A DNA stretch of 62,689 nucleotides, filler included, from Sphacelaria rigidula (lineage: Eukaryota), in the NCBI GenBank assembly GCA_964200075.2. It is 5 parts of 5 records of this genome, joined end to end, with 100 filler letters (N's around TTAATTAATTAA, not from the genome) between each part and the next. Parts side by side here need not be neighbours in the genome. Positions count along the whole stretch, not along the records: positions 1 to 12,461 come from CAXNAA020003745.1; 4 more parts are not named here. One strand, written 5' to 3'. Below, in pieces: positions 1 through 51,269 of the stretch. The stretch's first letter is position 1, and each line of letters starts with the position of its first letter. The translations under genes and the position numbers were made by a program. The notes under the pieces were generated by a model that saw nothing but the letters and a program-made list of their open reading frames with translations, had not been told where the DNA came from and made no database searches.

Positions 1-596
1 TTGGGATACGAGGTCAATGGTCTGATGACTATGGCATGCATGATCATGAGTACACCCCACCCGCCCCCCTCCCCCGCTGCCGTTGCAAATTGTCAAGTGT
101 CTCCGGACTGTGAGCCTATGAAACAGTTCCGAGGCGACGCTCGCCGTCTACGGGTCAACATGTTTTTGCACGATGTGGTCAAAGAACATCCGACGCGGTC
201 GTGGTCGCCGTCCCATCCACAACAGACCAGATGAACCTCGAATCCTTTCATCTCATCAGGAGCATAAACAAATCGCGTCCCTTCTCTTCCGGTCTATGAA
301 GCGGTACAAATAAAACTGTACCCCCTGCGGAGGGCCGTGGTAAACACATAACTATATCGTTTTGTGTAAGACAGACGATCTCGCGCGCGGGATTGCTGCG
401 AAACGCCCTTGCTGCTGCTACGACGAAGATATGGTGTACGTGACAGCTTCGTGAGGAAAACACTCAAGAGTAATGGCGGTCGTGCTTGTTGCGTTGAACT
501 ACTTCCACCACGTAAATTGGTGTAACTAGTTTCACATTGATGTGATACGGGCTGAGTTACTCGCTGTGTACTTGACCAACTGCTGCCATCGTTCTA

Positions 597-821
597 CACC
601 TTCCTTCTGCAGTGCTTGCCGTTACTTTTTATCGCGACAGGGGTTCAGCAGTCCCTTTTCTTCGTCGACCATGAAGTCGCAGGTTGTGTACACACGGCAT
701 AGTCGCCCTCCACTGTTGAGCATTGTGTGAGGAAAAATCCCAAATCGCTCCGAGATTCGAACCCACCACCCAACCGTGCGGAGGTTTCAACGTTACCAAC
801 TGAGCCACCGGGGCGACCGGC
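597..821 (-). mobile_element. tRNA-derived SINE-like repeat
   Basis: Minus-strand head has Pol III box A (TGGCTCAGTTGG) and box B (GGTTCGAATC). A diverged copy lies at 49489-49713. Confidence 0.7.
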
Positions 822-2710
822 TCTGCACAAGATACGGTACGAGTTGAGCACATGAGACGTTGAATTTTTTTTTACTGACGAAAACTAGAACATCTCCTCC
901 TATGGTGAGGGATCGGCGACTGGAAACCGTGGTATGGTGGTCGACCAAGTTGCGTACACCCCTGAGGAGAGTACAGACAATATGATCATGTAATTTGTTC
1001 GACATCATCTCAAAATCGTTTCACGCCTAATAGTGATCTGAGGCCGCTATCAACAGAGTGATCTAAAAACAATGAGGCTGGAGTTTCAAACGTTCTGGGA
1101 CAGTCTCCAGGCAGGGCACTGCCCGACAGCGGTTCCTTGCTCACGTGAATCGGGCCTGTCGTGTTTTCTGGTTGGAATCGGCTTGATATTGTACGTCTGT
1201 GTGCGGAGAGCAAATATAGTACGCGTTGTTTGTGCTGAATGTGGCTCACCTCTCGACATTATGCTGCAAGGAAAAAAACACTAGCCCACACAGCATGCAA
1301 TCACTGATTATAGGGTACCCGCGGCCATTCGGCTACCCCAAACAATTCTCTGTTCCGCTCAACGTTTCGAGCCTCCAGAGGAAATAAACGCCTTCAGAGG
1401 CTTGCTTTGCCTCTGGAGGGCCGTTGCACATTCCTCCGGAGGAATTAGGAGGATGCGTGGCCCTCCAGAGCAACACCTTTTTCTTACCCTCGAGAGATTT
1501 ATACCTCATGAGTCACTGGAGCATCAGATGCCCTCCGGAAGATTCGTTCATGACCGCACCTGGGAATGAAATATCCTCTAGAGGGTAATTTACCCTCGAG
1601 AGGATGACAATCGCGACAGAGGATTTTTGAGGGAAGCCGAATGTCCGCGTGTGGGGACAAAAATCAGCTAAGTTGTTTTTATTGGCACTTGCATAGTCGC
1701 TCAGACTCAACCGCCGAAAACGAAGGGATGCTACCCGACCAATTCCGCCGCACATTGCTGTACGATGAGGACTTGACACACCCGGGGGCACCCCACAACG
1801 CAGCATCAACCAACTAAAAATGCTGACTCCGCTGATTCTCGTACTCGCGGTCTTCCTCTTCCCCACCGTCCATAGATGGGTCTTCTGGAGACACGGGAGA
1901 TGCACTTCCTGGAACTGATGTTGCGCTCTCGGTAGTTTTCCCATCCTGTGTACATGCCACGGAGTGCTTTCGGTGACCGTCAGCGGCATGACTCATGAAA
2001 AAATTGGCGCGGTTTGGTCGAATGTATGCCTCACCCTCGCCTACCGTAACCTTTTTTGTATATACATATTTGACGAGTCTCTCCACGTTGAGAACTAATG
2101 CAAGTTCATGAGGGCGCGGATATGTGATGGAAATTCCGGAGCCCGCGGTCATGAGGCATATTTCGTACATTCTTCGGGAACCTCTATTCACCTACAGCAA
2201 AATGCGTAAATATCGTGTTCACATACCTGAAAGTCATGCTGCGTGAAAACGACGATGACAGGAAACAGGTGCACGTCATTCTTCTCGAATACTTTTCAGG
2301 TGAAGGACATGCGTCTCGCTTTGCGTGAAGTGACAGATGAAGAACCTGTAGCCATGATTCACACCGTACATATGAATGGTGAATAACACTCACCCACGAT
2401 TATCCGTTGGAAATAAACGGTGGGGAATATGCACATTCAATTCATCTCGCACTAATTCCAGGTGGCAAAGATGTGCATGCGAATTACACCGTATGAAATC
2501 ACAGGTGAAGTACATGTGACCAAAAATATTGCTCGCGGTCCCTTGAACAAATGAAAATGTATGAGAGCAGAGGCATTATTTGACGTCCCGTTGATGTCTT
2601 GTGAAAGTGTGTTCCGTCTACGGGTAGGCATCGGATTGGCGGGACATATTTCGTGAAATGGTGGGAAACCTGATATAGTTGAATCTACGGCCGTTTCGAA
2701 CACCATGCAG

Positions 2711-2782
2711 GTGAAATTCCAGAATCGCTTGGTCGGCTGGGCAGGCTGAGACAAATCGCCATCTTTAGCAACCAGCTCAGCG
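2711..2782 (+). CDS. 72-bp LRR exon 1: (G)EIPESLGRLGRLRQIAIFSNQLS(G)
   Basis: atgcag acceptor, gtgagt donor, phase 1-1, 24-aa GxIPxxLGxLxxLxxLxLxxNxL consensus. Confidence 0.9.
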
Positions 2783-5700
2783 GTGAGTCCCTTGAACAAA
2801 TGAAGGTGTATGGGAGCAGGAGCAGTGTTTGAAGTTCGCACAATAGTGTCCCATTGGATTTCGCTGATGCTTCTGGAACTGAGTCCCGTCTACGGCTTGG
2901 CTCTGGGTTGGCGAGACATGTTTCTAAAAGTGGTGGGAAACCTGATGCACTTTCATCCACGGCCGTTTCGACCACAATGCAGGCAGAATCCCCGATTCGT
3001 TTGGTCAGCTGGGCAGCCTAGAAGCTGCTAATCTTGCGGACAATCAGCTAAGCGGTAAGTCCCTTGGACAAATGAAGGTGTATGGGAGCAGGAGCAGTGT
3101 TTGAAGTTCGCACACTGGTGTCCAATTGGATTCCGCTGATGTTTTGTAAAGGGTGTCCCGTCGACGGCTATGCTCCGGGTTAGCGCGAAATATTCCTCGT
3201 GACGGTGGGAAACGTGACGTGCTACAATGCATGCTCGTTTCGAACACCATGCAGGTGAAATTCCGAACTGGATTGGTCGGCTGAGCTGCCTGAAGATGCT
3301 CAACCTCTCTGGCAACCAGCTAAGAGGTAAGTCCCTTGGACAAATGAAGGTGTATGGGAGCAGGAGCAGTGTTTGAAGTTCGCACACTGGTGTCCAATTG
3401 GATTCCGCTGATGTTTTGTAAAGGGTGTCCCGTCGACGGCTATGCTCCGGGTTAGCGCGAAATATTCCTCGTGACGGTGGGAAACGTGACGTGCTACAAT
3501 GCATGCTCGTTTCGAACACCATGCAGGTGAAATTCCGAACTGGATTGGTCGGCTGAGCTGCCTGAAGATACTCCACCTCGCTGGCAACCAGCTAAGAGGT
3601 GAGTCTCTTGAACGAATGAAGGTGACGGGGAGCAGAGGCGGTATTTGAAGTCCACGCGATAGTGTCTGGTTGGGTTCCGTTGATGTCTTGTGGAACGGTG
3701 TCCCGCCAACTGCTAGGCTCCGGGTTGGCAGAACATTCCTAGAAACGGTGGGAAACCCGATGTACTTCGATCCACGCCCGTTGCAAACACCATGCAGGCG
3801 ACATTCCGGACTCGCTTGGTCAGCTGAGCAGCCTAAATATCCTCAGCCTCGATGGCAACGAGCTAAGCGGTGAGTCCCTTGGACAAATGACGGTTTACGG
3901 GAGCAGGGGTGGTATTTGAAGTCCACACCATCATGTATAATTGGGTTCCGTCGATGTTTTGTGGAACTGTGTCCCGCCTACGGCTAGGTTCCGGGTTGGC
4001 GGCACCGATTCCTACGAGGTCTTCACGGACCACGGGTCATATATTATAAGATGAGTTGGCGTGAGCACAACTCTTGTGCCGACGGAGTTGTATTTCGAAA
4101 TTGAGATATTTTGAAGAATCCGGTTGAACAATGGCGATATCACCTCTTGTCGATGCAACAGCCCTATTGTTATCGGGGAAACAACCCAATCGAGGCAAAA
4201 ATTACCTCATCTCGATCGGAATATGTAAATGTCACGATTCCTCTCTTGATGGCACATTAATGTGAAACACTAAGCATCACTACTAATTTTGTGCTCATGC
4301 GAACCCGGGAAAACGAGCTCAAAACTAACAAGAAAAGAGCTTATTGGGTGAACGTCTACTTCACCTAATCCATAATATAGAGAAAAATCTCACATCTTTT
4401 TATGACGAGTCGATGGCATGACCTTCGACTTACATCATGGTCACGTTTATGACGTCACATTACTAATGAAAATTCTAGGCTTCATTACCTAACATCTCCA
4501 CAACAGTTGGCCTGGTAAATGTGGGCAATATGTAGCACTGTACAGCGCTCGGTCGGCCGCGTGCACACGGCCGCTCTGTACTGTGTACACACAACTACAG
4601 CCTCAACACTTTGCTGGATCAAGAAGTCCATTTCTTTCTTGTTTTCGTCGCCTTCTTTCCAGTGTGTCGGGTGTGATTTTTCATGGGTCTCGAGCGAAAC
4701 AAAAGCTCATTCCTCGGTAAGGAGTAGCATGGTCGGTATGGCAGGAGGAATCCACGTGTGCAACCATGGATCCGAGAGAACAGGCTAGTGTGTTTGATGA
4801 CAAAACAAGAACAAATCGCAAGGTAACTCAGCAGCAGAACCGATGACGTGCTCATACTCAATGTCCATACCTTAATGTCCTTCCTCCAGCGTCGACACCT
4901 CCAAATACGGGCCCCTATCTAGCGTTTCTCTGATTGTAGTGGAGCAGCCAATCTGCCCAGTTGCGAATTATCACAACGCTCAAAGTGTGTTGCTCCCCAT
5001 TGGTTCGAACGGACGACCCGCTTGTTCTTCCTCGATTCCGCGGCACTCTGTATCACCCTAGGATGCGCTGGTGGTTTACTTGGTGCAATATTGGTTTATT
5101 GACTCAATTCATGATCCGAATGATACAAGTGATCGCCGTACATCTGCACTAGACCCACTTGGCAACAGTAGTGTGCTTTGTCGAGGACGACCTTCGGTGG
5201 ATTGCAGCTCAACTAAGATGAAGCTAATGTTGCCTGCAGACCATTTGAGGAATGCACACGATTGACGTTCTCCCGCTCAAAGCTAAGTATACTTGTACTC
5301 GGTTTCTGTGAAGGCTTCCCACTTGCATTGTCCGCCGGTCATGCCTCGTGCCCATGCAGGGTTTTGGCAGCCGCTTGGGCAAGTCCAGGCTGGGTCAACG
5401 GCACCCGGGCCAGGTGTGTTGGATGAAGTGCTCGACGATGGCGATTCCTGGCTTGTAAATTCGTTGCATGGGCACTGATGTGAACATTACTTGCTACGCC
5501 GTTCCCCTTCAACGTTTGTTGAGCAGAATAAGAGAAGAGTCGCGAATTCGGAGCTTGGTTGTCAAGATAGACTGTACTCGAAGGTCCCATTGTATGTCCT
5601 CTGCGCGGTTGGAGGAAGTACTGAACTTACCGGGGAATACGTTCGAAGCCCCATCTCATAATATATCTACTGTGCGCTTGAAAAAGGCACTGAGGTCATT

Positions 5701-8700
5701 GGGATATGATTTTGAAACCCCATCTGTTAACGGTCCGTTACGGGATATCGCGCGACTATCTAGCGCGATGTTTTCATTTCGTGCGTGTTTCTCCACGTGG
5801 TTGACGCAATGAAACTCTTCGTATGGACGACATCACCCGGACAATGTTTTCCTGCCTGAAGGAAAAGGGTTTGTGGACTTTCAGTAGATACCAACATTCG
5901 ACCCGAGTTTCCCGTGACACGTTACAGCTCCTCCGCAACTGAAAATCTACAAGTAGACATAGAGGGTAAGCAACCTTGACGATATAAAGGCGCAGGTCGT
6001 GTGGGACGCATCCCATCCTGGCCCTTGACGTGATTTGCCTGTTTCCGCCCAACCGCATGTCCCGCGATTCATTTGCGTGTTTTCCAGATACTCTTCCGGG
6101 GGAATTGGCCTCTCTTCTCGACTGCTTAGCCGGGATTCCTGATTTAATGCTTGGCCAAAACCCGTGGGAGCAACCTCCCGTGGCAATCGTGGCGGATGGT
6201 ATGCCAGCGGTGAGGGGGTACTTCGAAGCCATGTTCAGGAGCGGATTTACCCTTGTGACCCGACCGCTAAAGGTGGTGATAGTTGGGAAGGAGACTGTTG
6301 GCAAGACGAGGTACGACGTTACGGTTTCTTCGCTTCTCCTACTTTTCTCCGAATTAGCGGAATTATCTTCACGCTATTCCCGCACACTACCCGTGACAGG
6401 GGGTTGATATCTCTCATAGAGACGATGCTATACAGACTTTGTTGTACCGTTGTAGAATCGAATCCGTCCCGTGGCAACTTTCACATGTAGGACGTCGTAA
6501 TGCGTGAGAGAACCGCGTGCTTAGAGGGCCGCATCGGCATTTGAACACCCCTATGGTTAGGGTTAGAGTTAGGGTTAGGGTTAGGGTCAGGGGTGTAGTA
6601 CCTGCAGTAACTGACCCGATTGGTTTCGAAAAGCATCGGTCCTGAGGTATTTTGAACTACGGCGCGGTCCTCCGAGCACGCGGTCCTTTTACGCATTACA
6701 ACGTATCAGAGCAATGCTCCCCAAAGAGGCGTCCTCGAATCAAAACATGACCTTTTCCCGCGGAACGACTGGATCGATATTGATCAGTACTTGAAGGAAC
6801 GCGGTTGTAAGTCACCAAAAACGCGAGTGATATCACTTCGGGGGTACATGCATTTAGGATCGGACGCCAAAAAGTTGATGATTAGACAAGTCACTGAGAA
6901 GACTCCACCAGTATTGGCGCATTTCATATATCCTGTGTGCGCTGGCGCAGTTTACGTCACAGCATCGGGACCGGGCAGCCGCGCACGACAAGAGGAGATG
7001 GTCAGGATAGCACGGTCCATGTGGATGTCGACGATCACGTAGTCGATGGTCATCGAACTTGGATGTTTGATTGTGCCGGTCAGGTGAGACATATTTTGTC
7101 ACCTGCATGCATTCACTCTATTGTGCTTAGTCGACCCAGTCGTCACGCTCACGTCATTGGTCGGCGTGTTTTACATTCGCCGGTCTGAGGTATTCACAGC
7201 GGCAGGAGTTCGACATAACTATTTACTGTGGTCATCTTTCTTGCAAATTATCGCATTACGCGTCCGGCCATTGGTTTAAGGCAAAACGTTTTCTGATGAA
7301 AGTTGAGCGGACCCACTCCCACATATGTCAGCTCATATTATCGATGGGTTTGTCTCATCCTCGTCATTGCTAGTCATGAACATGCAACTCGTGGATGATA
7401 TTGTCCGTTCGAATGACGGTAAGGTTCCAAAATCGAGTCACACCATTGGCGACATCGTTGTGACACCGACTGATAGTTCACGGTGGGTATCTCCGTGGCA
7501 AGTAACCCACGTTTATTTCTGACCCCGGCAGCATTTTGACGTCAACGCTTGTCACATGAATTTACACCTTGCAGCTTGATTTACTTCATGCGACACGACG
7601 TTGGCGTTGATTAAAACCGCTTCACGTGTCTCGTGATCGTTCTCTGCGACCGCTCGATAGGTTGTCTACTACGGGCTGCTCCAACTGTTTCTCACCCCTC
7701 GTGCTGTATACCTTTTGGTATGGGATGCGGAGAGAGCCAGCATGATCGACGGGTTGAACCTGGAAGACCTCGGCATCGCTCCCTGGCTCAGGAACTTGAC
7801 TTTCCGTGTACCGGACGCAAATTTGATACTCGTGGGCAACAAGTGGGACCGCGTGGAAAGGGCTGAGGACCGAGTAGCGGGTAAAGTGGAAGATAGAAGT
7901 CGCAAATGGCTGACTAATTGGATAGAGAGTGCGCGCGGACATCAACCTCACAGGCTTTCATTGGAAGACGGCGTCAGTCTTGTGAGTTGTGTGCCACTCG
8001 GCTCCGGAGAAAGGCTCAGTGGGGCGACAGGCTGGCCGTGCGACCGGAGTGAGCCGGGGCTTCTTCATCGCATCACGCACAGCCCAGACGGTCACACGAG
8101 AGCTCTCAAGATGTGTCTCCCGCAAAGCTATGTACTCGCCCTTCAGGTGCTTGAGGAGGTGGCGTCATCCAGCAGGTGAGGTCGTCGATGCCGTGTCTGT
8201 GTCTGAACTAGTGAAGTATGAGATACTCGTTAGATGCAATCAAGGGATATACCAATACACGTATCAATACCTTTAGAATGAACACGTCTGTGGTCTGACT
8301 TCTCACATCTAACGATAGCCTTGCTTTCACCCGCGTATGCATTTGTGGATGGTGCACAGCTGGACTCGACGAGATATTGCGTTTTCTTCCATCCTCTTGA
8401 TGGCACCCGTGTGTTCTCTCAGGGATACTGCTGAACGGAGAGGCATCACAAGAACGAGTATAGAGGAGAAGTGGCAGGCAAAGGTGCATGAGCTGGGCAG
8501 AGCTGCACCGCTGGATGCAGCCTTAGGAGAGGCCATGAATGGCGCGATCCTGATAAGGTGATTTCGACCTCGGCTTCCCTACTTTTGGGTTGGCTTCATC
8601 GGAGGCGAATTAGGTGTAATATTTCCTGACATACTAGTCGTTGAAAAGTGCTTGGATGTATGCAACCCGATTGTCTAGGTGTACTGTTCTGTTTATGTGA

Positions 8701-9540
8701 GTAAAGTTTGCAGCACATGAGTGGGTGCAGTTTTGAAATTTGGTCCTCGTACCATTTCGTTTCGGGCCTGGCTTTTCATCCTACTCACGCGTGGTATACA
8801 GGAAGTGGGAGGGAGGACTGGTGGATTACGGCAGCTACATCTTCCTCGATGTCCAATGGTTTGCGACAGTTTTGGACCCTTTGTTCAGTCACAAGCGAGA
8901 TTCATACGGCAACATTGATTTGGGTGGCATCAGAGTTACGCAAGTTGCGAGCTTGAGGCGACTAGATGAAGAACATGTTTTCGAGCCACAACTCGCTAAG
9001 GATCTTTGGGGCGCAGTGCTTGCATCGCATCTTCTCATGGCTTTGAAAAGTGCGGGGTTAACGTTTCCCTTGCCGAACGACCCCAATGAGGGCTTGGTGA
9101 TCCTTCTCCGTATGGGTACAGAGCCCCCAAGTGACTACGCCACAAAGCTCGAGGAAGCAGACAGAGCTAGAAACCACGACCTCAAGCTCAAGGTGGAGTG
9201 CTTCTTCAGTCTAGGGTTGCCCCCTGGCTTCGTTGAGCGTCTCCTGGCGAGGTGCTGTCACTTGGGCTTCCCGCACCCCTTCTGGCGATACGGGGCTCTT
9301 ATAGTGGGTGAAGGAGAGGAGGAAGGGTTGTTCTCACTGAGTTTGGAATACTCCGAGAGGAACAGAATCCTGACAGTGGAGGTGTACGGAGGATGTCAAA
9401 GGAGCCATGCGTGGGCGGCTTTGTCGAAAGTACTCTCCGTCACGATCAAGATGCTGTCGGAGTTCCCCGGTTTACCCTGCGAGGCAACGTTTTTCTGCCC
9501 GCGTCACGAGACCAAGGGCATGTCCATCAGGACGGCAGAT
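2711..9540 (+). CDS. LRR-ROC-COR (ROCO family LRR-GTPase), spliced; N- and C-terminal exons not resolved
   Basis: Phase-compatible AG/GT exons read by hand: 2711-2782, 2983-3054, 3255-3326, 3527-3598, 3798-3869 (LRRs), 5360-5413, 6088-6310, 6951-7083, 7661-8175, 8423-8557, 8802-9540. Motifs: NPWEQPP LRR cap, P-loop LKVVIVGKETVGKTS, switch II FDCAGQ, YYGLLQLFLTPRAVYLLVWD, G4 LVGNKWD, and COR segments FLDVQWFA and GLPPGFVERLLARC. No internal stops seen. Confidence 0.9.
2983..3054 (+). CDS. 72-bp LRR exon 2: (G)RIPDSFGQLGSLEAANLADNQLS(G)
   Basis: atgcag acceptor, gtaagt donor, phase 1-1, LRR consensus. Confidence 0.9.
3255..3326 (+). CDS. 72-bp LRR exon 3: (G)EIPNWIGRLSCLKMLNLSGNQLR(G)
   Basis: atgcag acceptor, gtaagt donor, phase 1-1, LRR consensus. 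Confidence 0.9.
3527..3598 (+). CDS. 72-bp LRR exon 4: (G)EIPNWIGRLSCLKILHLAGNQLR(G)
   Basis: atgcag acceptor, gtgagt donor, phase 1-1, LRR consensus. Confidence 0.9.
3798..3869 (+). CDS. 72-bp LRR exon 5: (G)DIPDSLGQLSSLNILSLDGNELS(G)
   Basis: atgcag acceptor, gtgagt donor, phase 1-1, LRR consensus. Confidence 0.9.
4059..4300. mobile_element. Putative MITE in ROCO intron
   Basis: Short terminal inverted repeat gcgtgagcacaa ... ttgtgctcatgc around an AT-rich non-coding interior. Confidence 0.4.
6088..6310 (+). CDS. ROCO exon: LRR C-cap and ROC P-loop
   Basis: tttccag acceptor, gtacga donor; DTLPGELASLL...NPWEQPPVAIV...KVVIVGKETVGKT. Confidence 0.88.
6497..6699. mobile_element. MITE-like element with internal TTAGGG repeats, in ROCO intron
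   Basis: 36-bp inverted arms at 6497-6532 and 6664-6699 (30/36 match); six TTAGGG-like units at 6557-6592. Confidence 0.65.
6951..7083 (+). CDS. ROCO exon: ROC switch I/II
   Basis: gcgcag acceptor, gtgaga donor; SLRHSI...DSTVHVDV...WMFDCAGQ. Confidence 0.88.
7661..8175 (+). CDS. ROCO exon: ROC G4/G5 region and start of COR
   Basis: gatag acceptor, gtgagg donor; VVYYGLLQLFLTPRAVYLLVWD...LVGNKWD. Confidence 0.88.
8802..9540 (+). CDS. ROCO exon: COR domain
   Basis: atacag acceptor, gtaagt donor at 9541; KWEGGLVDYGSYIFLDVQWFATVLDPLFSH...LPPGFVERLLARC. Confidence 0.88.
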
Positions 9541-12461
9541 GTAAGTGCCCGATTTCAATGCGCTAATGGCTTTTGGTTTGTTGGATGATCATTCTTCCAG
9601 TGGTAACCAAGTAAGCAGCGTTCGATGTCGATAATCTTGTTGAGCAGGATACACTCAGTAAATGGTCGAGAAGGCACCCTCGGAACCTCAATGTTGAACA
9701 AGGTATGCGATCATTATGCGCGTGATATTTGCCATCAACTTCGAGTTGCACTGCTCGAAACACGCTACAGGACCGAAAAAGCACACGAAGGACAAAAGGT
9801 CGAAGGGAATGCCTTGGGAATCGTTTGTGGGTGACGTTCGTTACCTCAAAGCAGCATGAATAGCGAGCAGAAATACGAGCTGCGCCAGCCTGAAAACGGA
9901 CTTGAGCTCTAAAAGCAGTATGTCATCGACATAGACGAGTTGGGGCGTGATGCGCATCCTATCCTATTTATTATTAGCGTAATGTCACCAGCTCCCACAC
10001 TGCAATGAAGTCGGCCCGTTTCCGGATTTCCCGTACTCTCGAGATGAACATGTGGCTCGCGCGAGCACCGGATGCACGAAACACAGGGCACCCCAACCGT
10101 GGTGGCGTGCGTCACGCTTTTACACTCTGAATCGGAGCCATCACAACCAAGCCACAGTCAAGTGGAGTAGTACAATTGGACGGTAACATGATGTTGCACT
10201 CTCTCTCATCGCGCGACAGAACACTACACACGTATGCTGCATTATACCTCGATACCGCCATGTTCGCCACGTCATCTCTATCGCACTCATTGTGTGTTTG
10301 ACAGAGCATGGATCACGTGTCACCCGCGGGGCGGGTTCTCTGCACACCGTGGACAAAATATTCCTTTGTAAAAAAATGCACTGTGCACAGTGTGGAATTT
10401 GTTTTTCATTGCGTTAGACGCAATAGTCGATACTGTACCCAGTACGCTTTTTGACAATAAATTCTTTTGTCCAGGGTGTGGTTGCCTGTTGTTTTGGCAT
10501 AGTTTTCACTTGAAAAATAAGGAAAGACCCATGTGACACCCTGGCGGTAAAGAGGATACATTTTAGAGCTGGCGGCAGAAAGACGTCAGGCTCTCCGGAT
10601 ATTTCTTGGAATCTGATTCTATAGTGGTACCCATGGACAGAGCGAAGGAACGTAGCGGGCGAAGGGGGAAGAGAAGACACTGCATGCCCTGTATTGTACA
10701 GTTCCGTACTGTCCTGTGTATTTTAGTTGGGATTCGGTCTATCTACATGTCACGTGTGTACCGTCCTGTCTGTACGACATCGCCCATTTTGCTGAACAGA
10801 CGCCACGGCGATCATGGCAATACCTACGGACGCAATACGATTCACTCTTAGACCGTGATGCGGGTAGTCCATTCGCGTCACCGATATTTCAGCAGGTGAC
10901 CTACCCTCGCGGTCAAAGGGTTAACGAAGATGGGAGCATAATACAGTCGCCATGACGTTGCTACTGCGGTACACGTCAGGCTCTGTACCTGGGCTCCCTT
11001 TGCCGCTGGGCACAACAAACAAAGCGCGCGGCAGCTCTTTTTACTTCATAATTCGTCGGCGTGCACTTAGCAGGGGAAGAAGGAAAGGAGTAACTTTGAG
11101 ATTTGAAACAATCAATACAGATCACTTGTTCATTTTCGAGCTGGCGGATGGTAGACACGTGAACGAAAGGAAATCGGCTACGCGACGAGTAGTGACAGAT
11201 CAGGCTCCTTCATCGAAGGGGCCTTCATCGAAGGGGCCCCATAACGACCAGTTCTGAGTCATCATTTTTCAATGAATTATGAATAAGTTTGAGCAGGGTC
11301 ACGCACAACGTGCGCAGGTGATGAGCAGCGACGGCTCAAGCCATGTGTTCTTGGTTTGCGGGGGCACCAAGTTCCGCAGTTTTTAGCTCTGATTGTTTGG
11401 GTTGTGTGGTGTGCGTTTCCATGTGCCCTTGTTAACCGGAAATATATTTATGTTCTCCTTCGAGGTGTCCGGATATCCCTTATTCAAGAGGAGATTTCAG
11501 AAAGTGTTTTTTCACCGCCTGGAATTCCCCCCCAAATAGGGTATTTCTGGGCACATACGTTTGAGGATTTTGTTCGGGAGGGGTAGGGGGGGGGTGGCAT
11601 TGCAGCAACCAATCAGCGATCGTTTTCAAGGAAGATAATTTGAGAAAAAAAAAGAACGAGAAATCCCATTCGATGAAAAGGACCCCGGGAGAGTACGGCA
11701 GCATGTTACTGTACTCCTGTACTACGCGTTGGTTGTCCTGGCTCTACATCGAAAGTGTGATCCAGGTCATCACGGTCGGGGTGGTCATGCGGCATTGACC
11801 AGCCACAAGTGTTTTTGCCATAATCCTAGGTTGCACAGATGTCGATGATGCACCCGGGTGCTCATACAATTTTTCTGCTTCGCGGACGTGAGGGTAGAGT
11901 TCAAGGGCAGGTCGAGAAGAGTATGTACTGTTGAGTATGCTCCTGCTCGACGAACGCATACAGGAGAACAATTGACCCGAACGTCCTCCTTGGAGAAAAG
12001 AAAAACGACCGAACGACTCTTGATATTTTCTTCACACCAACTCCAAGGCCGGAGCGTGTACGCTATTTTTGAGTTGTGTGCTTCGAGCCCGAATGCACCC
12101 ACTGGGTTACAGCCCCTTCCAGGGCATGTCCCGCGCTCAGCAGGAATAATCGGACAATGGCGTAATATTTCTGCAGGTTTTGAGGGTCGGCTTGAAAAGT
12201 ACGTGGAAACAAGGATCAACCCCGGAATGTCTCAGTGGTGCGGAGGCTGAAGCTCACGAACACCACGTTCACGACGTGTTGGTAAAATAATAATAAACAT
12301 GTCTGGGAGCGACCTGTCCAACCAGGGCGAGGCGAAATGTATCGACCACATCAGAACGACCAGTGGGGGGGGGGGGGGGGGGGCTGTTGCCGGGAGTGAT
12401 GTCACTGCAAAGTTGGTGTACCCCGTCCCTGGCCAACAGAAAAGCCTTCGAATCAAAAGGA

Positions 12462-12561
12462 NNNNNNNNNNNNNNNNNNNNNNNNNNNNNNNNNNNNNNN
12501 NNNNNTTAATTAATTAANNNNNNNNNNNNNNNNNNNNNNNNNNNNNNNNNNNNNNNNNNNN
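12462..12561. other. Artificial contig spacer (N44-TTAATTAATTAA-N44)
   Basis: The same 100-bp spacer occurs at 25021-25120, 37578-37677 and 50134-50233. Confidence 0.97.
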
Positions 12562-14600: not shown

Positions 14601-17181
14601 CGTAGGGTGTGATGATATCAACTCTCTCGTGTTACCGCTATACGATCATGGAAGGCTGTGCAGATCATGTATTCGGGATGATCCCAAGCCGTGTCTCATC
14701 AAGTTGTTTTCAAGTCGAAAATGTACGGTGAAATTAAATTTGCTCTCACCTGAAACGTCCACGGCATCGATGTTCCCAACCATCTGGGAAAATAAAGAGC
14801 GTGTGCGAATAAAAAACGAGGGGATTCGATTCGACCGCACGTTTTCGAGCCAAAAACAATTTGATGAGACACGGCCTCATACGTAGATTCTCGGGCATGT
14901 TGTCAACCAGGCTGGTGGGAACCAGTACGGTTCAGTACGAGGTACTAACAGGAACGATCCGGAAATCGGTACTTCAGCTAGTGTTCAGTCGAGCCGAAAC
15001 GGCCCCGCGGCTCAACATTGTAAGCCTGTAGTTGGGACTTGAGGCTGAGATTCATAGAGAGAAGATTCAAAATACAGCTGCACACAAGCGGATGACATCT
15101 GATCCAATAATGTCAAGCACGGCGATTCAGCGCCCCACTCGGGTCCGTCGTCCGCTCAACGCGTGAAGATCTTTGGTGACGCTTGCCTTGCTCCACTTCA
15201 AAACGGTGCACTGCGAGGAACCGCCCCACGACCACATCAAACACCTCACAAGTGCATCCAATTTTTGCGCCAGAATTGCGCTGGTTGGGTGCAAGACTTG
15301 GAGCTGTAATAGGGCAAAGGATTTGCTCAAACTTGGGGAGCCAAACAGGTTGGGGGAATCCGTGACTGCAATTGATGACGTGCATTTTTTATTCCCCAAT
15401 GTGAGGAGGTAATGATTACCACCCCGACGGAAACATGTGGCTTTTTTTTCTTCACTGATACATGTGGTTGTATCCGTACATACGCTTTAATGAGCACGCG
15501 TGCGCCATGCCACCATACGGGTTCTACGTTTGGGCCCAGACGTGTTCATTGAGGGATTCCTATAGATCGGAGCTATTGTACACAAGAATTATAGTCAGGG
15601 CAAAATCTACGTTAAAAGTGGATTCGAGAGAGACCCCCTAGCCCATTGGAATGCTGATCGTGGCATGCTCTCACGTTTTTCGGAAGTCGTTTCTCGGATG
15701 AGATACGAACCTTGGGAACGTTTCGTGAAACCCTTCCACGGCATGGTCGATGGAGTTGGAAAGTTCTGTGTATTACACGATCTGCGGGCAGCAGCATTCC
15801 ACGAGTACCTCGCACCGTGTTGGGTGCTGCTGTCTACAGCGGGCCAAGTCGGCACTTGATGGTGGGCACGGACCACAGATACACGAGTGCATTACTTGAC
15901 GGTTCACATGTGTCAGGATGTGCATTCATCCGTAGCGTGGTAGGAAGCACGATTTATGCAGAAAATTGTAGTTGAGCTGGTGAGAGAGCACTGGTAATAG
16001 TAGTAAGTCGAAAGCAAAAATGCAGTTATTGCGAATGCTACGCTTTGGTTACACAAAATGAACATCATGTCTGATGCAAAAACTGACGCATGAAATTCGT
16101 GAGAGCACGCCTTGATTAGTAGGCCAGTGGGCCAGAGATATTTCGAATGAACTACGGAACGGAAATGTCCTCATCCATATTCTTGTTAAGCCCCCAACGT
16201 CATCCATGTACAGGGCATGCAGCCCCCCACACACCCCCCACCCCCAACAACCACACACACTGCACACATACTTATCCAACTCTTCCTCACNNNNNNNNNN
16301 GCAAACCGAAATGCCTCCCCCCCAATCTTGTTAAACCCCCCCCCCCCATCAAAAAAAGAGACACCGTCCCCCCCCCCCCCCCCCCCCTTTGAGGAAGAAA
16401 TAAATGCGGATTATTGTTTTTCATCATGGTCATAACAGTATGGAAAGAACAAGACCTGTCAGATGAGAAACGTCTGGGCCCGAATTTGCAACCCTTGCCA
16501 TGGCAGGACTCATGACTCTCAGAGCTGAAAATTGTGCATGGCGCACGAAAAGAATCAAGACCCACTCCGTCCTCCATCCCTACTTACGGAAAAATTGTTC
16601 AAACATGCACCAAAACGCCCACTATTAATACCGAACTGCTGTACGTGAAGGCTGGGTGTACAACAAGCAGGAGCATACACGTGCCAGCCAGCACGCGCGT
16701 TGTACCATGCCCGACACTGCCATCTCATCTCCACTCAGACAGAGTGATCATGTCCAGTTTATCAGAAACGTGTCAGCGGATGAACTCGCACACGCCTTCT
16801 TCCGGGAAAGACGGTACCCGGACTGACAAAACCACAGCACGAAGACATTTTACACGAAGGAAACGTAACGCCCAGTGACGAAACTATGCGCTGCGTTTGA
16901 TATTTTCCGATTGAGGAGCGATGAACGCCACCCCCTATAACTATGCCTAACACACTTCAAGTAGCCCTTCCGTTGTCCCAGGTGCGGCATACCTTCTGCT
17001 CCCACCGGGCATGAGCTCTGCCTACCACTCCGCTGCGGCCTTTGCCACCGTGCTGTAGTAGTGCGTCGCCGTAATGCAGTAGTGCTGGAGCCCGGTGACG
17101 GAGTATGGTATGGAAGCCACCACTTTGCAGCGACATGTCGGAAATTGATGCCACACATGCATGAAGAAGCAGTGCACGCAA

Positions 17182-23409: not shown

Positions 23410-26400
23410 GTGAGATCAACTCTTTGCAAACGATACTCGAAGAGGGGGAATGGCATGAGAGATTGGTCAGGCGGAAAGTGTGATGAACTCAGGAAAAACT
23501 GAGACGTAGCTTGTGCTGTGCCCTGCGAGTATGATATGTGTGTGGTGATGGATATCGAGAAAAAGTCAGTGGGATACTAAAGCCGATATGTGCTGTTGAA
23601 AGTTCGGTAATATCGATGCGATATCCGATATCCGATGTATCGTATCGCGTGATATCGCATGATATCGTGAACGATAACTGGAGATTTCGCCTTCAACTTT
23701 CCCCGAAACGTGTAGGATCCGGAGACAACCTGCTCTTCACACATGATGCATATATCGCAGTTTTGCTGGACATGTGTTATGTACCCGGCAATATATCCCG
23801 GATATATGGGGATGTATCGGGATATGTGTATATATATCGATATTTGGGATACGATACCCTCTCACTGATTGTCTGTCCAGGTATTCTCCGAGGGTTGTGA
23901 AAATTCCCCCGACGATGCCAATCTTTATGGCGGATCTATATTCGGAAAAGCACAAAGAAACACGGCGTGCTTGTGATATATATCGGCTCGACGAGAAGCA
24001 CAAACAGCTGCCGATCATACACACTTTCCGTCCGCTCTGCGCGCTGTATCCCGTCAGTTGATTCGAAGAGCCTGTCATGTGATCTAGCGTTTCATGATGT
24101 TGAACCGGTTAGGGTGGATTCTGTATGAAGGGTTCCGATGCCGACCCATGTTTTATTTTTTTTTTCCGGGAAGAAGTATCTGGTTTTCGTTGGTGAAAAG
24201 GTGAGGACGTGATGAGTCAAAAATAACTTTCACGGTTGTCGACGCGGTGTGGAAGTAGTGCTGGTCCAATCCGCGATGCCAAAATGCCAGGGAGGTACCG
24301 GGCAAAAAGTAAGTTGGTCTCTTGAGACCACCAAGTCGTCCCGAAGAAGTGGGGGACTTGAGAGCATGATAAACATGCAGTGAGGAACAAAAGCCAGGAT
24401 CCATCACCCCCACCTTGCGGCTGTCAAACCCGCCTCATCACCGATACTGTCACCAGTGGTGAAACGCCGTTGGATTCAACAAGTCGCCCCAAGCTGAGGA
24501 CTTTCGGCTTCTTGCCGGTTCCGCCCTTTCGGGTGCTGGCTTACAGGCGGGTCCGCTACTTCAGTTAGTGTTTGATAGCTCATTGCTCAAGCAAATGGCG
24601 GCCGAAGAACTCTCCTAGAATCACCCCCCCCCGTGTTTTTCTCGTACGAAACGTATCGCATTGCTGTTTAGAGTGTGCTCCGACGATGCAGCGGCGTTCC
24701 ACCCTGTCGCACATGTCATCTTTTGCGGCGAATCCAGCCTTTACCGTTATGGCCGCGAAATGTGTACGTTCGTTTCTATGTATTCCACTGCGCACCTGTC
24801 TACCTTGATGTTGACGTGCAGAGGTGTCCCGGTTAGTAGGGCGGCCCTTGTTCAAACGGTGCCCGATTTCAGGCGGTGAACATCGGTTTGTACCAACACA
24901 TCTCGGGCAAGTACGATCCCAATCCACTCCAACGCTGAGTTCCACTTGAGAGTCGTTCAACGATAGACGGTGGGCGCGTACTTATTTGTTGCCTGCCTTA
25001 GTCGTTTGACCACTGACCATNNNNNNNNNNNNNNNNNNNNNNNNNNNNNNNNNNNNNNNNNNNNTTAATTAATTAANNNNNNNNNNNNNNNNNNNNNNNN
25101 NNNNNNNNNNNNNNNNNNNNCATTTTCGGCAATCGCCTTCACTGTGGAGATGGGCAGCACACAGGTGCACTTCCGGCGTTCCATCGACAACAACTGAAGC
25201 GCTCCAGCTACTACTACACCGTAACCCCACGCAAGCGTGTATAAAAGTTGTCAGCATTTAAGAAACGTCGTTAGAACGTATTGCCGGACCTTCGAAACAA
25301 GCCCTCTTTTCCTAGAGACTGCGACGTATTCGCTTCTCAAAGAAATCGAGATCCAAAACGGTTACCACTTTGTTTCGTGCGTGAGGTGGTATACTGTGTG
25401 GAACACTGTACCGCACGTACCGCAGCCGGCGATATACCTTTTTTCTCTTCCTGGGCAGAAACGCGTCTGCCAAGGGCACCGTCGTCTCCACAACCCCACG
25501 ACAGGATCTTTCCGTCGGCAACAGCGAAAACGCCGAGTCCACCACATGTCACCGACGTAATCTACAACAGACGAGCATCAAGAGTACGATTCAAGAACGG
25601 CGCCCTCATCACGGACGTGAAAACAAAGCATTCGGAAAACCAATGACCAAGTCCGCCATGCGCTCACGTCAAGTACAATATGACAATATCAAAGGACACC
25701 GCTGGTGTTTTCAGTCGTTGTACAGGAGCTGTTCGTTGGCCTGTCTTGCCTCTCCAGCAAGTTGTATCAGATGAACGGTTCGGCAAACGTCCAAGCCTGC
25801 GCAGTTCAAGAGGGTTGGTTTCAGGCTGAGGTGCACACCGTGCAACTCTAAGAGTACAGTGTGGGCACTGGTATCCTGGGCGGAGAAGATATTCCATTCA
25901 CTATTTACGGCAGCAAAAGACTACAGATCAAGGGTGCCTGCTCGTGTCACAGGCTGTGGTGTAATGTATCAAATTTAGCCGCCAATTCGGGCCCAACCTT
26001 ACATGATATCCTGAGTGCAGACACTTGCCCGTGACGCGTACTGCCGCAGAGCTCTACGACGAACACAGAGAGGAGCAAATGATGCCGTGGGAGTCAAGTC
26101 CACAGCGCGACCCGCCGCCCGACTTCATGAGTATTTCAAAACGATCATATCTCCCACTGAATGTGCTGTCAAGATCATTGTCGGGAGATCCAACTGTGAA
26201 GTGAGGTAAGTCAGTCCTGCACCGAAAATAAACAGATGCCAATGATAGGACATCTCGCCTCCTACGTTGTAGATAGAAGCCGCAAATTCGAAGCAGTCAC
26301 ATCTGGCCCTCGTTTGGGACGACAACTCTGCTTGGAATAGTGTCGCAACAATGCCGGCAGTAGGAAGGGACGGTGGATGTTTCTCCCAACTACCGTCTTT

Positions 26401-32193: not shown

Positions 32194-34701
32194 CTGTACA
32201 TAGTGGCACGTGCGGAGGGGCAAGCAAGCCGAGGCCTTGTACCACAAGTCGACGAAATGTAGTGTGTGTTGATGCCGCATGTCATTGAGAGCTGTGTTCG
32301 GTATATCGCATCTTACGGCGTTGTCCTGTGGCGAGAACAACTGCTGTCTCGATACATCATATCACGAAATAGCCGGTTCAGGGTCTACATCGATTCCCGC
32401 AACGATGAATAATAACTCCTGGTGTTTCGGTGATGTGGTGTTTCGGCGTCGTCAGATTCCCAATGATGATATGCACGAAAGACCCGGGGAACCTTCATGC
32501 CCGTCGTAGGACAGCTCAGATCGCCCTCAAACTTGGCCGTTCCGCGAGCATTTTTGCTCCAAATGGGCAATTGTATTGTTGACAACATTTCCAAGTTTTC
32601 GACTCTTTACCGGCGCCGAGGGTCCCGGCGTAAAGACCCTCGGAAGGCGGTTCAGAATGCCTCAAAAAAAAAAAAAAAAAATAAGCCCCCCCCGGAAGAC
32701 CAAAGAAAACCCGTAAAATTTTTTGTTGAGAAAAAAGGAAAGAATATAATCTCCCCANNNNNNNNNNAAAGGACACAAGCGAAATTTCTTATGAAAGATA
32801 TTCAAAAATTCTAAAAAAAAAAAAAAAAAAGTATGCCTCCCCGGGTAGTCCAAGGAACACCCGTACATTTTTTGGTTGCGAAACACGAAAGCCCCATACT
32901 CTCTCAACATACCCGAAATGGACACTTTTATACTATAACCAAGTAGTGGAGAGATGGATTGTTTCAAGCTCACTTCATCGCATTAAAGCGCAGAACGTCA
33001 CGCCGTTTCGACGAGACAGGCCATGAACATGAGCACACACGTGCTGTGGGTCACTCTGAAACTTTCGATGGACCACAGGGTCCAAGATCCTCGAAAAAAA
33101 GTTCTTGAAGGCCCTGAGACCCCCTAAAGCCGATGAAAAATCAAGACGTGATAAACCTCGTCCATCGACAGTTTTAGATTGGCCTATTACACATTTTTGC
33201 CAAATTTCAGGGTCTCAACTCTTGAAAACGGCGTGAAGTCATGCAGATGAATACGTTCAGGGTGATGAACGTGAACCAGTCTGTACATCTGTGTCATCAC
33301 TCACGCGCTCTCCTCGCGAAGCAGTGAAAATGTGCAGTACTCCTTTTGGTGTCGGCCTGCATGCATACATCGACTGTTGTCATGCCGGTACTGTATTTTT
33401 CTGTACCATATAGCCTGATTTTGTGTTCATAGACGGAGCAGCGGCGAACGCGCTCGGGGGGAAAACGCGTGCTGGGCGTCCGTCACTAACTCCGGCAGCA
33501 TCAATGGTATCGCGCACGCCGAAACAGAGGAGCACCTGGGCCTTCGTAAGCATAACACTAATATCGTACCTCACTCACCAGAGCTGGTTCGCTCTCTCAG
33601 CAGGAGAAATGCATCCTGAAAGCGCGATTCATCGGAATGCGACGCCCCAAAGAGCAACGCCCCGATACCAGGTTGTGTCAAGGGAGATGTGGGCCCAACG
33701 GACTTGCCATCGAGTTGTTTTTTGTTCTCCGTACTATTGACGGTTGCAGATAGCTACGCTGTACAGAAAATTTGTGCCACTTATCGAGGAGGTACAATAT
33801 ACCTTGATTGCGCCGCTGTCCACCCTCATGATCCAAAAGCAATCTCTCCGCTATCCACGTGACGGTGGATAACACCCCGTCCAGACTTCACGCTGCTATA
33901 GTAGCCCCCCCCCTACGCTACAGACAAGCAAATTAAGCCAAGTGCCATTTCCCTGCAAGTTTTCTCCATGAAATAATCGAGTGTAGGCTGTGTGAGGTGG
34001 AACGTAAACGTCGGTGCCCAGATTAACGGGGCGGGTATTGGCATTTTTGGGGGTGCTCTGCGCCATGCATGTTTGCTTCTCTGCTGGTGCTTGTGAACTC
34101 GAAGCCTTGTCGTTCCTCCCGCACGTGCCATGATACGAAAGTCAGCCTACGTGATCGCTGGGCCTGTCGAATCACGCCTGAAAACGGAGACCGATAGGTG
34201 AACAAGGAGAAATCTTGCTTTACGCTCGAATCCGCCGCTATTGATGGGGTTGGCGGTTCCGCTGGTCACTTCTACTGCAAGCATACTCTCTGTACTCCGA
34301 AGGACCACCATCTGTGCTGCGCTACTGTACGGTGGCTGCTGGAATAATATGTCGTAGAAACAGGGCTGCTGCCGTATGTATGCTGGACTGCCATCAGCAG
34401 TGGAAAGCTTTAGTCGACGTGTAGCTGTCAACATAGCAAGAACGTAACAACAGCGAGCTGCCACAGATTTCACCGCGTAAGGCGCACATCAGGCGTGCTA
34501 GCAGATACACGGTAACAGTATACGGCTATCGGAGACACAGTCGAGCTGGGCTGCCCTAGACGCGGCCTTGAGCTCTCACCGCAATATTTCGTCGACACAG
34601 ACGAGGTGGGCCGTGGTCCGCCTAATCGTCTGATCAAGGGGAACGCGCCCATCTGCTCAACAGTCTGGGCCATTTTTTCCCGTTGATTAAACCCCATGCC
34701 T

Positions 34702-49713: not shown

Positions 49714-51269
49714 TGTAGTGCACGATAACCTAATGTGTTCGCGAGTACAGTCTGTATTTGCAAGCTTGCACTACTGAACTCCCTGTGCTTGCAGAGCGGC
49801 GCCTCGCACGGCACTTCGCACGAAGTGTGACAAGCGGATGAGAAGTGTTGATGCCGTACCCTGGTGCGACGGTAATATTTTATGCTGCACTGCGCTATCG
49901 TCTGTGTGTATCATTGCAGACGGTGCTGTACTATCCTACCCTCTGCTGTCGCTGTACTTCAAGGGCGATGAATGGCACTTTTTGGCGGCTTGCCATGCGC
50001 ACATCTAAATCCATGAGCTCTTGTTTGGGAATTGATTGTAATCATTGACCGCGAATCAGATATTAACAACAAATTGTGAGAATTGAGGTTTAACTTCGAG
50101 ATGAGGCTCAAGCCTAAAACAGTGCTTTCCCCANNNNNNNNNNNNNNNNNNNNNNNNNNNNNNNNNNNNNNNNNNNNTTAATTAATTAANNNNNNNNNNN
50201 NNNNNNNNNNNNNNNNNNNNNNNNNNNNNNNNNGTAACACCGTATGGGTAGGCGCAGAGTAAAAGCGCAGAAAAGCATGGCGGGACTTGTGCCTTTTCAC
50301 TCATGACACCGACCACGTGGCATTCGGAACAGAAAAGACCAAACCCTGAAAAGTTGGTCACGGTCCACACCTACGTGGTAAAAATAAATAAAAACAACCC
50401 TGGGCTTTAAGCGTAAACATCCAGTCGTTCTCGCTTTTATCCCCGAGTTTTGATTTTTTTTCCGAAACTCTCTACTGTCTGTTACCTAGGATTTACCTGG
50501 ACACTCCGGGAATACAGAGAAAATACTACGGGAGATACCCTCACGACTTCACACCCACCCATACTCAAAGTGCGGACAAATTAAGTATCAGTTGTATATC
50601 TGCGCTGGACTCAGCAGCAAGAAACACTGAGCGTGCGTCGTTTTGCACTGAACACAGTCGACTGCATGCTACCGGTGTCTCTACTCAGTGTTCCACAGCA
50701 ACACTACATTGTGAGGCTATGTTGGCAACACAAGAGGCACAGGCAGGCAGGCGGCGAAGGTAGTCCACGAGTAAAAAGTACGCCGTATGTGCCTAGGTGA
50801 TTCATGATTTGTGATAAAAATGATTCTCCTGGTCTGCAACGATTTCTGTGCAAAGCGGATACACGTCACGTCAATCGCTGTCCGTGTCAAGTTGCGCTCA
50901 AAATAGTATTTCCTTGTGGATATGTTGATGTCCTGACCTCAAAAGAACACCACAACCAAACCATCACCCGCTGATTCGCCATGTTTTGGGCATGTGCTCT
51001 GGTGCTTGCGCGAGCAGCGAGGTGACTGGTGTGGTGTGTGTTGTCGGGAGGACGGTTGTACGTTACACGTCACGCCTGTTGAAAGTCCAAACCCAGCGAA
51101 ACGCAACCATCGTACTTTGGACTGACTTTAGACTTCGGGAGAATTAAAAAGTCCAAGTCCTCACTCGAATTTGATCTTCGCGAACACCGTAGTATACTGT
51201 TGTATTTCAGTATATGTACATTTCACTTTTTTCCCCCTGTATTGGACGCTGACTATATTCTTTGAACGC

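Follow-up and report, generated by a model that had tools for sequence, protein, structure and literature searches.

Are the leucine-rich repeat (LRR) cassettes of brown algae diversified by ordinary evolution alone, or by a controlled, possibly somatic, process? The question dates from 2012 and concerns the ROCO LRR genes, which head the list of candidate pathogen receptors in these organisms. The locus described here, from the brown alga Sphacelaria rigidula, is contained in a window (the whole stretch of DNA that was analysed) of 62,689 nucleotides (nt), and in it two adjacent intron-plus-exon cassettes, A (3055-3326) and B (3327-3598), differ at three nucleotides only. It very probably codes for the LRRs of an LRR-Roc-COR (ROCO) GTPase from a brown alga, a candidate receptor for pathogens inside the cell. 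The window joins five contigs (12461, 12459, 12457, 12456 and 12456 nt) by N44-TTAATTAATTAA-N44 linkers, and the ROCO gene lies in the first of them (1-12461).

A young pair of LRR cassettes altered at three codons

The two cassettes consist of the following features.

3055..3254, + strand: intron of cassette A, 200 nt, GTAAGT..ATGCAG, with 0/200 differences to 3327-3526
3255..3326, + strand: LRR exon A (GEIPNWIGRLSCLKMLNLSGNQLR), codons 15/17/19 = ATG/AAC/TCT, from the exon scan and an exact 88-nt contig over 3268-3355 (runs X1 and X3)
3327..3526, + strand: intron of cassette B, 200 nt, seen as a GT..AG joint skipping 200 nt in a contig of run X5 that carries a third exon version
3527..3598, + strand: LRR exon B (GEIPNWIGRLSCLKILHLAGNQLR), codons 15/17/19 = ATA/CAC/GCT, from the exon scan, exact contigs in X1 and X3, and a spliced X5 contig

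Each unit is 272 nt long and is laid out as a 200-nt intron (GTAAGT...ATGCAG) followed by a 72-nt exon. Direct comparison gave 269 identical positions of 272 (98.9%), the same count that a preliminary description, made by eye, had reported; the 200-nt introns, which to that description appeared identical, do not differ at any position. The near-identity at an offset of 272 spans 3054 to 3328 and breaks sharply at both ends, with an overlap of only 3 nt at the copy junction. There are exactly three mismatches (3298 G/3570 A, 3302 A/3574 C and 3308 T/3580 G), and from A to B they change ATG to ATA (M15I), AAC to CAC (N17H) and TCT to GCT (S19A). The codon map bears out the frame and residues given earlier (M>I, N>H, S>A), as well as their placement on the x positions of LxxLxLxxN, codons 15, 17 and 19 being x positions in L13-x-x-L16-x-L18-x-x-N21. 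That these positions belong to the concave face, as had also been said, agrees with the modelling of Ectocarpus ROCO sites (PMC3341825).

The remaining complete units of the array are just 76.4-76.8% identical to unit A (blastn, window), so the A/B pair is far younger than the rest. The introns convey the same: older cassettes differ among themselves at 42-50 of ~200 intron positions, compared with 0 of 200 between A and B. One 272-nt intron-plus-exon cassette has been copied in tandem very recently, adding one repeat to the horseshoe.

Much of this organization has a published counterpart. The 'type I LRR exons' of Ectocarpus ROCO genes are 72 nt long, encode one repeat each (GxxPxxLxxxxxLxxLxLxxNxLx) and undergo intense exon shuffling (Zambounis et al. 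2012, PMC3341825). In the same work, sites 15, 17 and 19 are positively selected with posterior probabilities >0.99 and site 20 with 0.886, all four modelled onto the concave face, and mean omega at the selected sites is ~5.9. Selected sites 14, 16, 18 and 19 in a 23-residue numbering were later reported for four brown algae (Teng et al. 2024, PMC11378527), which we read as the earlier sites shifted by one. The A/B differences therefore sit precisely on the three best-supported selected sites. As exon-per-repeat cassettes, shuffling and selection at 15, 17 and 19 are already published, the A/B pair is a very clean further example and not a new system, a link to the brown-alga ROCO cassettes that the preliminary description had missed.

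Variation is concentrated at a few codons

The three A/B changes are non-random. Nonsynonymous differences occupy 3 of ~55 sites and silent differences 0 of ~217 (200 in the intron and 17 synonymous), which gives p=0.0079 in a one-sided Fisher test. If three sites were drawn at random, they would land one each in codons 15, 17 and 19 with a probability of 8.1e-6, and all inside an 11-nt span with a probability of 0.0036. All of these values are post hoc, because the pair was chosen by eye out of a large scan.

The older cassettes (U0, U1, A and U4) display the same focus. Their mean pairwise difference per nucleotide is 0.23 in introns and 0.25 in both scaffold codons and the other x codons, but reaches 0.62, or 2.7 times the intron value, at codons 14, 15, 17, 19 and 20 (hereafter the hypervariable codons), of which codon 15 is the most variable. 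An even spread of variation over introns and exons, which the preliminary description had set against its own proposal, is thus not what these paralogues display. After Jukes-Cantor correction the long-term excess at the hypervariable codons is ~5-fold and, given that excess, the probability that three of three changes fall in them and none elsewhere is ~0.01 (both by our own arithmetic).

Homologous proteins were consistent with this pattern. Of the 31 homologues described below, 16 yielded 94 distinct repeats, in which entropy was highest at positions 15 (3.70), 17 (3.47) and 20 (3.40). Among 56 within-protein repeat pairs with 1-5 differences, 47 of them from a single protein (P0013), positions 14, 15, 17, 19 and 20 accounted for 158 of 216 differences.

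Read contigs separate A from B and contain a third version

Eight public runs contain part of the stretch, of which X5-X8 are RNA by guess, none being recorded as such. Contigs of X1, X3, X4 and X5 were compared with 3240-4400 at 90% likeness; such contigs show presence only. X1 and X3 are two samples of one study, possibly including the source reads of the assembly, X4 has a low share and X5 is RNA by guess. An 88-nt contig over 3268-3355 with 0 differences, present in X1 (depth 50.8) and X3 (9.1), carries A's three letters joined through AGAG to GTAAGTCCC. Contigs over 3540-4400 (X1, 973 nt, depth 55.6) and 3540-3772 (X3), also with 0 differences, join B's letters to a different intron, GTGAGTCTC. 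Because their downstream introns differ, A and B are not alleles of one cassette, and the artefact raised in the preliminary description, two alleles stitched in tandem, is ruled out. Moreover, the GTAAGTCCC-type intron after exon A leads, among contigs at this likeness, only to exon versions A', A or B, so some tandem pair of near-identical cassettes must exist. No contig of the four runs bridges the 243 identical nucleotides between A and B; it is therefore the assembly alone that places the two side by side.

Exon B is spliced. An 823-nt contig of X5 joins 3535-3596 to 3796-3870 across a GT..AG intron with 0 differences and continues into the exon at 5360, from which it follows, X5 being RNA by guess, that exon B enters RNA together with U4 and the linker exon. 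The GT..AG joints 3325/3326>3526/3527 and 3596/3598>3796/3798 were found in X5 and in none of X1, X3 and X4.

The third version, A', is an 84-nt contig over 3263-3346 with four differences, present in X1 (depth 49), X3 (10) and X5 (39.3), where it is spliced across a 200-nt GT..AG intron. It is absent from the window (blastn). Compared with A it carries 3293 A>G and 3295 G>C (AAG>GAC, K14D) and 3312 G>A (G20D), and the fourth difference is probably 3325 A>C (R24S), judging from the end of the contig at 3346, where it would merge with the path that follows U1. It has no change at 3298, 3302 and 3308, and so carries copy A's patch between other flanking codons. At codons 14, 15, 17, 19, 20 and 24, the three versions read D-M-N-S-D-S (A', with Ser24 as the probable state), K-M-N-S-G-R (A) and K-I-H-A-G-R (B). 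Counting the probable one at 3325, seven nucleotides differ among the trio, and each of these differences replaces the residue of an x codon, with no synonymous change and with every scaffold Leu and Asn codon left intact.

Mean word depths of the X1 contigs are similar (A' 49, A 50.8, B plus flank 55.6), a weak hint that each version is single-copy. Depth rises to 223.5 at 3340-3386 in X1, compared with ~55 in the flank, and to 30.2 at 3326-3369 in X3, compared with ~10, although these depths are not copy numbers. For that reason, and because other loci contribute (a 260/262-nt contig), we dropped an arrangement of exactly three cassettes in one locus. The 260/262-nt contig, present in X1 and X3, matches 3357-3413 with 4 differences and then 3313-3346, with ~171 unaligned nt between; this layout of 57 + 171 + 34 nt fits a cassette with a diverged middle. 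The changes 3405 C>T and 3413 G>A mark an 85-nt contig as a variant of the intron. More copies of the cassette family exist in the genome than the assembly shows. In X5, no contig had copy A's own letters and the sole contig over 3263-3325 was A', in a single run and with contigs that drop variants; in X4, no contig covered the core of exon A or B at its low depth (2-6).

Origin of the three differences

Tentatively, with a probability of roughly 40%, we attribute the three A/B differences to the exchange of a short patch with a sister or paralogous cassette, the result of which diversifying selection then retained. For the duplication itself, the likely routes are replication slippage and unequal homologous exchange from one periodic unit to another, and the cassette introns, constant in length and 75-79% identical, may have supplied the homology. 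A, B and A' would belong to a small group of sister cassettes, three or more in number and nearly identical. The 11-nt cluster would then represent one short-patch or discontinuous gene-conversion event rather than three separate mutations, and with the altered beta-strand residues facing the ligand, the patch may have been kept by diversifying selection at 15, 17 and 19. We lean to a single clustered event because, even with the long-term excess, three of three changes in hypervariable codons have a probability of only ~0.01.

Copy A is exactly intermediate between the other two versions. It has no private change: wherever the three vary, the odd one out is A' or B. Copy A may be the unchanged ancestor from which both derive, or else a mosaic in which an A'-type core sits between B-type flanks. 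We rejected one simple unequal crossover of A' with B as the source of A, since it would yield K-M-N-S-D-S and not K-M-N-S-G-R. Deriving A from A' and B needs a double switch, which means that conversion acted over 11-16 nt, in a tract either short or discontinuous. The preliminary description had named diversifying selection, conversion from a donor exon and targeted mutagenesis of the binding face without choosing among them; the selected sites do match and conversion is possible, given that A' has A's patch, but nothing supports targeted mutagenesis. As to the donors it envisaged, A's patch recurs in the read version A', and B's patch was absent from the window and from the metagenome contigs.

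Several observations weigh against patch exchange. No donor of B's patch was present in the 62.7-kb window (at up to 3 mismatches, with just the two known sites recovered) or among metagenome contigs (0 matches). With only three sequences, A', A and B, no site incompatibility arises, and a plain tree, with A' as outgroup, A unchanged and B carrying three substitutions, fits equally well. Rooting favours this tree: AGC (Ser24) is common to U0, U1, U4 and probably A', which groups A with B as sisters and renders B's I/H/A the derived states. Tracts in ordinary gene conversion are longer than 11-16 nt as a rule, and in a large population under strong selection, three adaptive substitutions can fix before a neutral change appears in ~217 sites. 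As for the third version, its fourth difference is a probable one, the X1 and X3 contigs that carry it come from one study and possibly from the assembly's own reads, and it is missing from the window.

The account that comes next in probability, and that we regard as quite possible, is that G>A, A>C and T>G were independent point mutations, fixed successively in B by positive selection before any silent change in the ~217 sites. Codons 15, 17 and 19 are published positively selected sites (PMC3341825), the hypervariable codons have diverged 2.7 times as much per nucleotide as the introns in older cassettes, and A' also differs from A by replacements only. The Ser24 rooting, by which B's states are derived, and the empty search for a donor in the window and metagenome contigs suit this account as well. 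It has to accommodate, however, the ~0.01 probability of three hits in hypervariable codons and none elsewhere despite the long-term rate excess, a local acceleration of >~70-fold where the published mean omega is ~5.9 (PMC3341825), and the double hit AAG>GAC in one codon of A', a pattern that sits badly with mutation in single steps. If one untemplated multi-nucleotide mutation, such as error-prone repair synthesis can cause, made all three changes and was then tolerated or favoured, one event would be needed in place of three, an economy that the clustering within 11 nt (chance 0.0036) recommends. By our own count, however, a random cluster with the same 4+6 spacing in a 272-nt unit hits only hypervariable codons in ~1% of placements, and the x-codon-only differences between A' and A are left unexplained; we consider such an origin very improbable. 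Least probable of all is a programmed diversification, germline or somatic, templated or mutagenic, that rewrites the beta-strand codons of LRR cassettes. The idea has been voiced for Ectocarpus ROCO genes as a hypothesis of 'controlled somatic recombination' (PMC3341825), and the seven A'/A/B differences, all of them x-codon replacements beside unchanged scaffold codons and intron, are what it would produce. Against it, two samples both yield these versions as clean contigs, so that they look inherited, and we found no enzyme, signal sequence or structured element (an Rfam search of 2300-4300 gave 0 matches, and the fold of the cassette intron RNA, with z=-0.33, is not unusual). According to Teng et al., moreover, neither somatic recombinant ROCO loci nor a dedicated recombinase have been reported (PMC11378527).

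A different kind of doubt concerns the arrangement only and is compatible with any origin of the differences: the assembly may have been mis-threaded through the 243 identical nucleotides, so that A and B are not neighbours, or three cassettes are present, or A belongs to a paralogous gene. A window of five ~12.46-kb contigs with additional 10-N gaps betrays a fragmented draft, A' is missing from the assembly at a similar contig depth, further related cassette contigs exist (for example the 260/262-nt contig in X1 and X3), and A is bridged to B by no contig. Yet in the contigs at 90% likeness the GTAAGTCCC-type intron leads only to A', A or B, so that some near-identical tandem pair must exist, and A and B, with their differing downstream introns, are not alleles of a single cassette. 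We regard mis-threading as unlikely. Short-patch exchange followed by selection, our tentative choice, could also be taken further, to a dedicated templated process, germline or even somatic, in which 10-30-nt stretches (codons 14-20) are copied from one sister LRR cassette to another. The homology would then come from the conserved introns and scaffold codons, and the A'/A/B trio would be a footprint; we hold this extension to be improbable.

Anatomy of the cassette array

At 2588-4001, Tandem Repeats Finder reported an array with a period of 272, 5.2 units and 81% matches, and blastn of unit A against the window gave matches confined to this array. A scan of the window for AG/GT-flanked 72-nt exons with LRR spacing returned five, all on the + strand and each with 8/8 motif positions, and four further hits with 6/8 positions that do not look like LRRs. 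The features of the array other than cassettes A and B are as follows.

2505..2537, + strand: LRR-like exon or exon remnant (..VHVTKNIARG), 33 nt, ahead of the array, from reading of the sequence, with putative splicing
2538-2710, + strand: cassette-type intron, 173 nt, matched by blastn of unit A at 2538-2583 and 2588-2780
2711..2782, + strand: type I LRR exon U0 (GEIPESLGRLGRLRQIAIFSNQLS), AG/GT-flanked, 72 nt, 8/8 motif positions
2783-2982, + strand: intron before U1, 200 nt, from the codon and border map
2983..3054, + strand: type I LRR exon U1 (GRIPDSFGQLGSLEAANLADNQLS), from the exon scan and codon map
3599..3797, + strand: cassette intron, 199 nt, GTGAGT..ATGCAG, spliced out in the X5 contig
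3798..3869, + strand: type I LRR exon U4 (GDIPDSLGQLSSLNILSLDGNELS), the last LRR exon, from the scan and from the X5 contig that joins it to exon B and the next exon
3870..5359, + strand: long intron, 1490 nt, ending in an ATGCAG acceptor as cassette introns do; the X5 contig resumes at 5361

Every exon border splits a codon as G and GT, an exon running from the last 2 nt of one Gly codon to the first 1 nt of another. Because each exon opens with two Gly-codon bases and closes with one, any number of cassettes stays in frame. The cassette introns (200, 200, 200 and 199 nt, GT..AG) are mutually 75-79% identical, a conservation that equals that of the scaffold codons and exceeds that of the exons overall, which differ at 15-30 of 72 positions. 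The intron at 3599-3797 is 75% identical to the A/B intron (150 matches, 48 mismatches and 3 gap columns).

Only two partial cassette remnants were found, both on the coding strand. The region 2505-2710 is a putative truncated first cassette, whose donor after 2537 reads as a weak GTCCCT, four bases shorter than GTGAGTCCCT. The other comprises the first ~131 nt of the long intron (3870-4001), which resemble a cassette intron at 78.8% over 132 nt (blastn). The 72-nt exon scan found no minus-strand LRR exons within 1-12461.

The locus belongs to an LRR-Roc-COR gene

Downstream of the array, exons for a linker and for the Roc and COR domains follow on the same strand.

5360..5413, + strand: linker exon (GFWQPLGQVQAGSTAPGPG, beginning GFWQPLGQ), from the X5 contig, its 3' end (GTGTGT donor) read by eye
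6054-6308, 6949-7125 and 7661-8164, + strand: Roc GTPase exons, by tblastn with homologues P0006 and P0009
8412-8558 and 8767-9543, + strand: COR exons, by tblastn

The linker exon fits the 'LWxxLGQxxAGS' stretch that homologues place after their LRRs, and the Roc-COR exon map is collinear with P0006 and P0009 (tblastn). The COR reading frame (283 residues) has 31 homologues among 3074 candidates, the best with E=1.8e-127 and 75-78% identity; they come from Ectocarpus spp., Pylaiella littoralis and Scytosiphon promiscuus, most carry PF08477, and one from Ectocarpus siliculosus bears the name 'LRR-GTPase of the ROCO family'. These hits point to a brown alga with ties to the Ectocarpales, whose own proteins are missing from the database searched. 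Pfam matches to the locus itself are faint: Roc (PF08477) on 7661-8179 has E=0.002 and 18.8 bits, under the 27-bit cut-off, and COR-B (PF25497) has E=0.0011 and 19.2 bits, also under its cut-off. When the initial 75 residues of four homologues were used in a permissive tblastn, nothing convincing appeared upstream of 2500 for the N-terminal domain usual in ROCO homologues (MAQTDREALVALYNATDG...). A protein search with the open reading frame around exon B returned 4 candidates, none of which scored, in a database without the organism's own repeat proteins. The receptor function of the gene is putative.

The intron between Roc exons 6054-6308 and 6949-7125 contains (GGTTAG) x 6.3 at 6555-6592 with 90% matches, a rotation of the telomere-type repeat TTAGGG. 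Elsewhere in the window, the start of the second contig (12562-12800, + strand) holds an intron-less run of ~three type I-like LRRs (..NKLSGEIPSWLRQFGNFRELHLGVNQLIGEVPSPLRQLGSRQELFFSDKVSGENTSS..) at the contig edge. The run may belong to another LRR gene, one that lacks cassette introns, or be a processed fragment that was spliced and then re-inserted. The linkers lie at 12462-12561, 25021-25120, 37578-37677 and 50134-50233, and features are not readable across these joins; 10-N gaps are found at 16291-16300 and 32758-32767.

Relation to known repeat-based recognition systems

The locus shares with the LRR-ROCO genes of Ectocarpus and other brown algae a 72-nt exon per 24-residue repeat, in-frame cassette introns, the LRR-Roc-COR order, recent cassette duplication and variation focused on sites 15, 17 and 19 (and 20). 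It stems from another organism or paralogue than the published proteins we found, with identities of its COR exon that do not exceed 78%. Introns that contain LRR exons, non-coding or on the reverse strand, occur at 19 Ectocarpus loci, although not in every gene (PMC3341825); the present locus has just five LRR exons, without reverse-strand or intronic ones in the 12.5-kb contig. Alternative splicing of LRR exons has also been described for brown-alga ROCO genes (PMC11378527). Both studies give family-wide PAML statistics, and the main-text sections consulted contain no identical-intron pair altered solely at three selected codons (PMC3341825, PMC11378527). The terms 'gene conversion', 'unequal' and 'hypermutation' have 0 occurrences in the former (PMC3341825). 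A search of the literature outside supplementary tables for work joining gene conversion, leucine-rich repeats, brown algae and ROCO returned nothing that treats the A/B micro-pattern.

A kindred case is that of the fungal NOD-like receptors (NLRs) with high internal conservation (HIC), such as HNWD/NWD WD40 proteins, whose near-identical repeats vary at a few hypervariable surface positions; gain, loss and exchange of repeats occur, for which unequal crossing-over and ectopic gene conversion have been put forward, and a 'sort of weak HIC' has been remarked for brown-alga receptors (PMC13449251). Fungal HIC repeats are WD40, ANK or TPR units inside one exon of NACHT/NB-ARC proteins and have repeat-induced point mutation (RIP) as a mutagen, whereas the A/B locus has LRR exons with their own introns in a Roc-COR GTPase gene. 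Where the HIC criterion calls for 80-100% nucleotide identity among repeats, A and B are 98.9% identical and the other units 76.4-76.8% identical to A. High conservation is limited here to one pair, or trio, and the rest stands at ~76%.

In plant resistance proteins and receptor-like proteins, the solvent-exposed residues of the LRR xxLxLxx motif are hypervariable and the beta-strand x residues are under diversifying selection, and plant resistance-gene clusters undergo unequal crossing-over, gene conversion and sequence exchange between paralogues, a parallel also cited in PMC11378527. The plant-type LRR has 24 residues with GxIP, as in the brown-alga ROCO exons. Plant LRR arrays, however, are generally not built of one exon per repeat, and their signalling domain differs from Roc-COR. 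The variable lymphocyte receptors (VLRs) of lamprey and hagfish, to which the first ROCO study refers, likewise use LRR cassettes as units of diversity and alter the concave surface by templated copying over short homology (cited in PMC3341825). In the germline a VLR gene is incomplete, and somatic assembly from flanking donor cassettes builds it up; the ROCO gene, in contrast, is complete across its LRR, linker and Roc exons and is spliced, with no extra cassettes in the contig.

Significance for brown-alga immunity

The A/B pair offers an unusually clean snapshot of LRR cassette evolution: the intron is unchanged, yet all three selected codons are already altered, and the sister version A' differs only at other binding-face codons. 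The U1-U4 locus (~1.1 kb) is a small, defined test bed for copy number, patch exchange and somatic variation. If ordinary selection on point mutations produced the pair, it would simply illustrate well what two papers have set out before. If dedicated templated patch replacement were true, brown algae would possess a repertoire generator based on gene conversion, outside the vertebrates.

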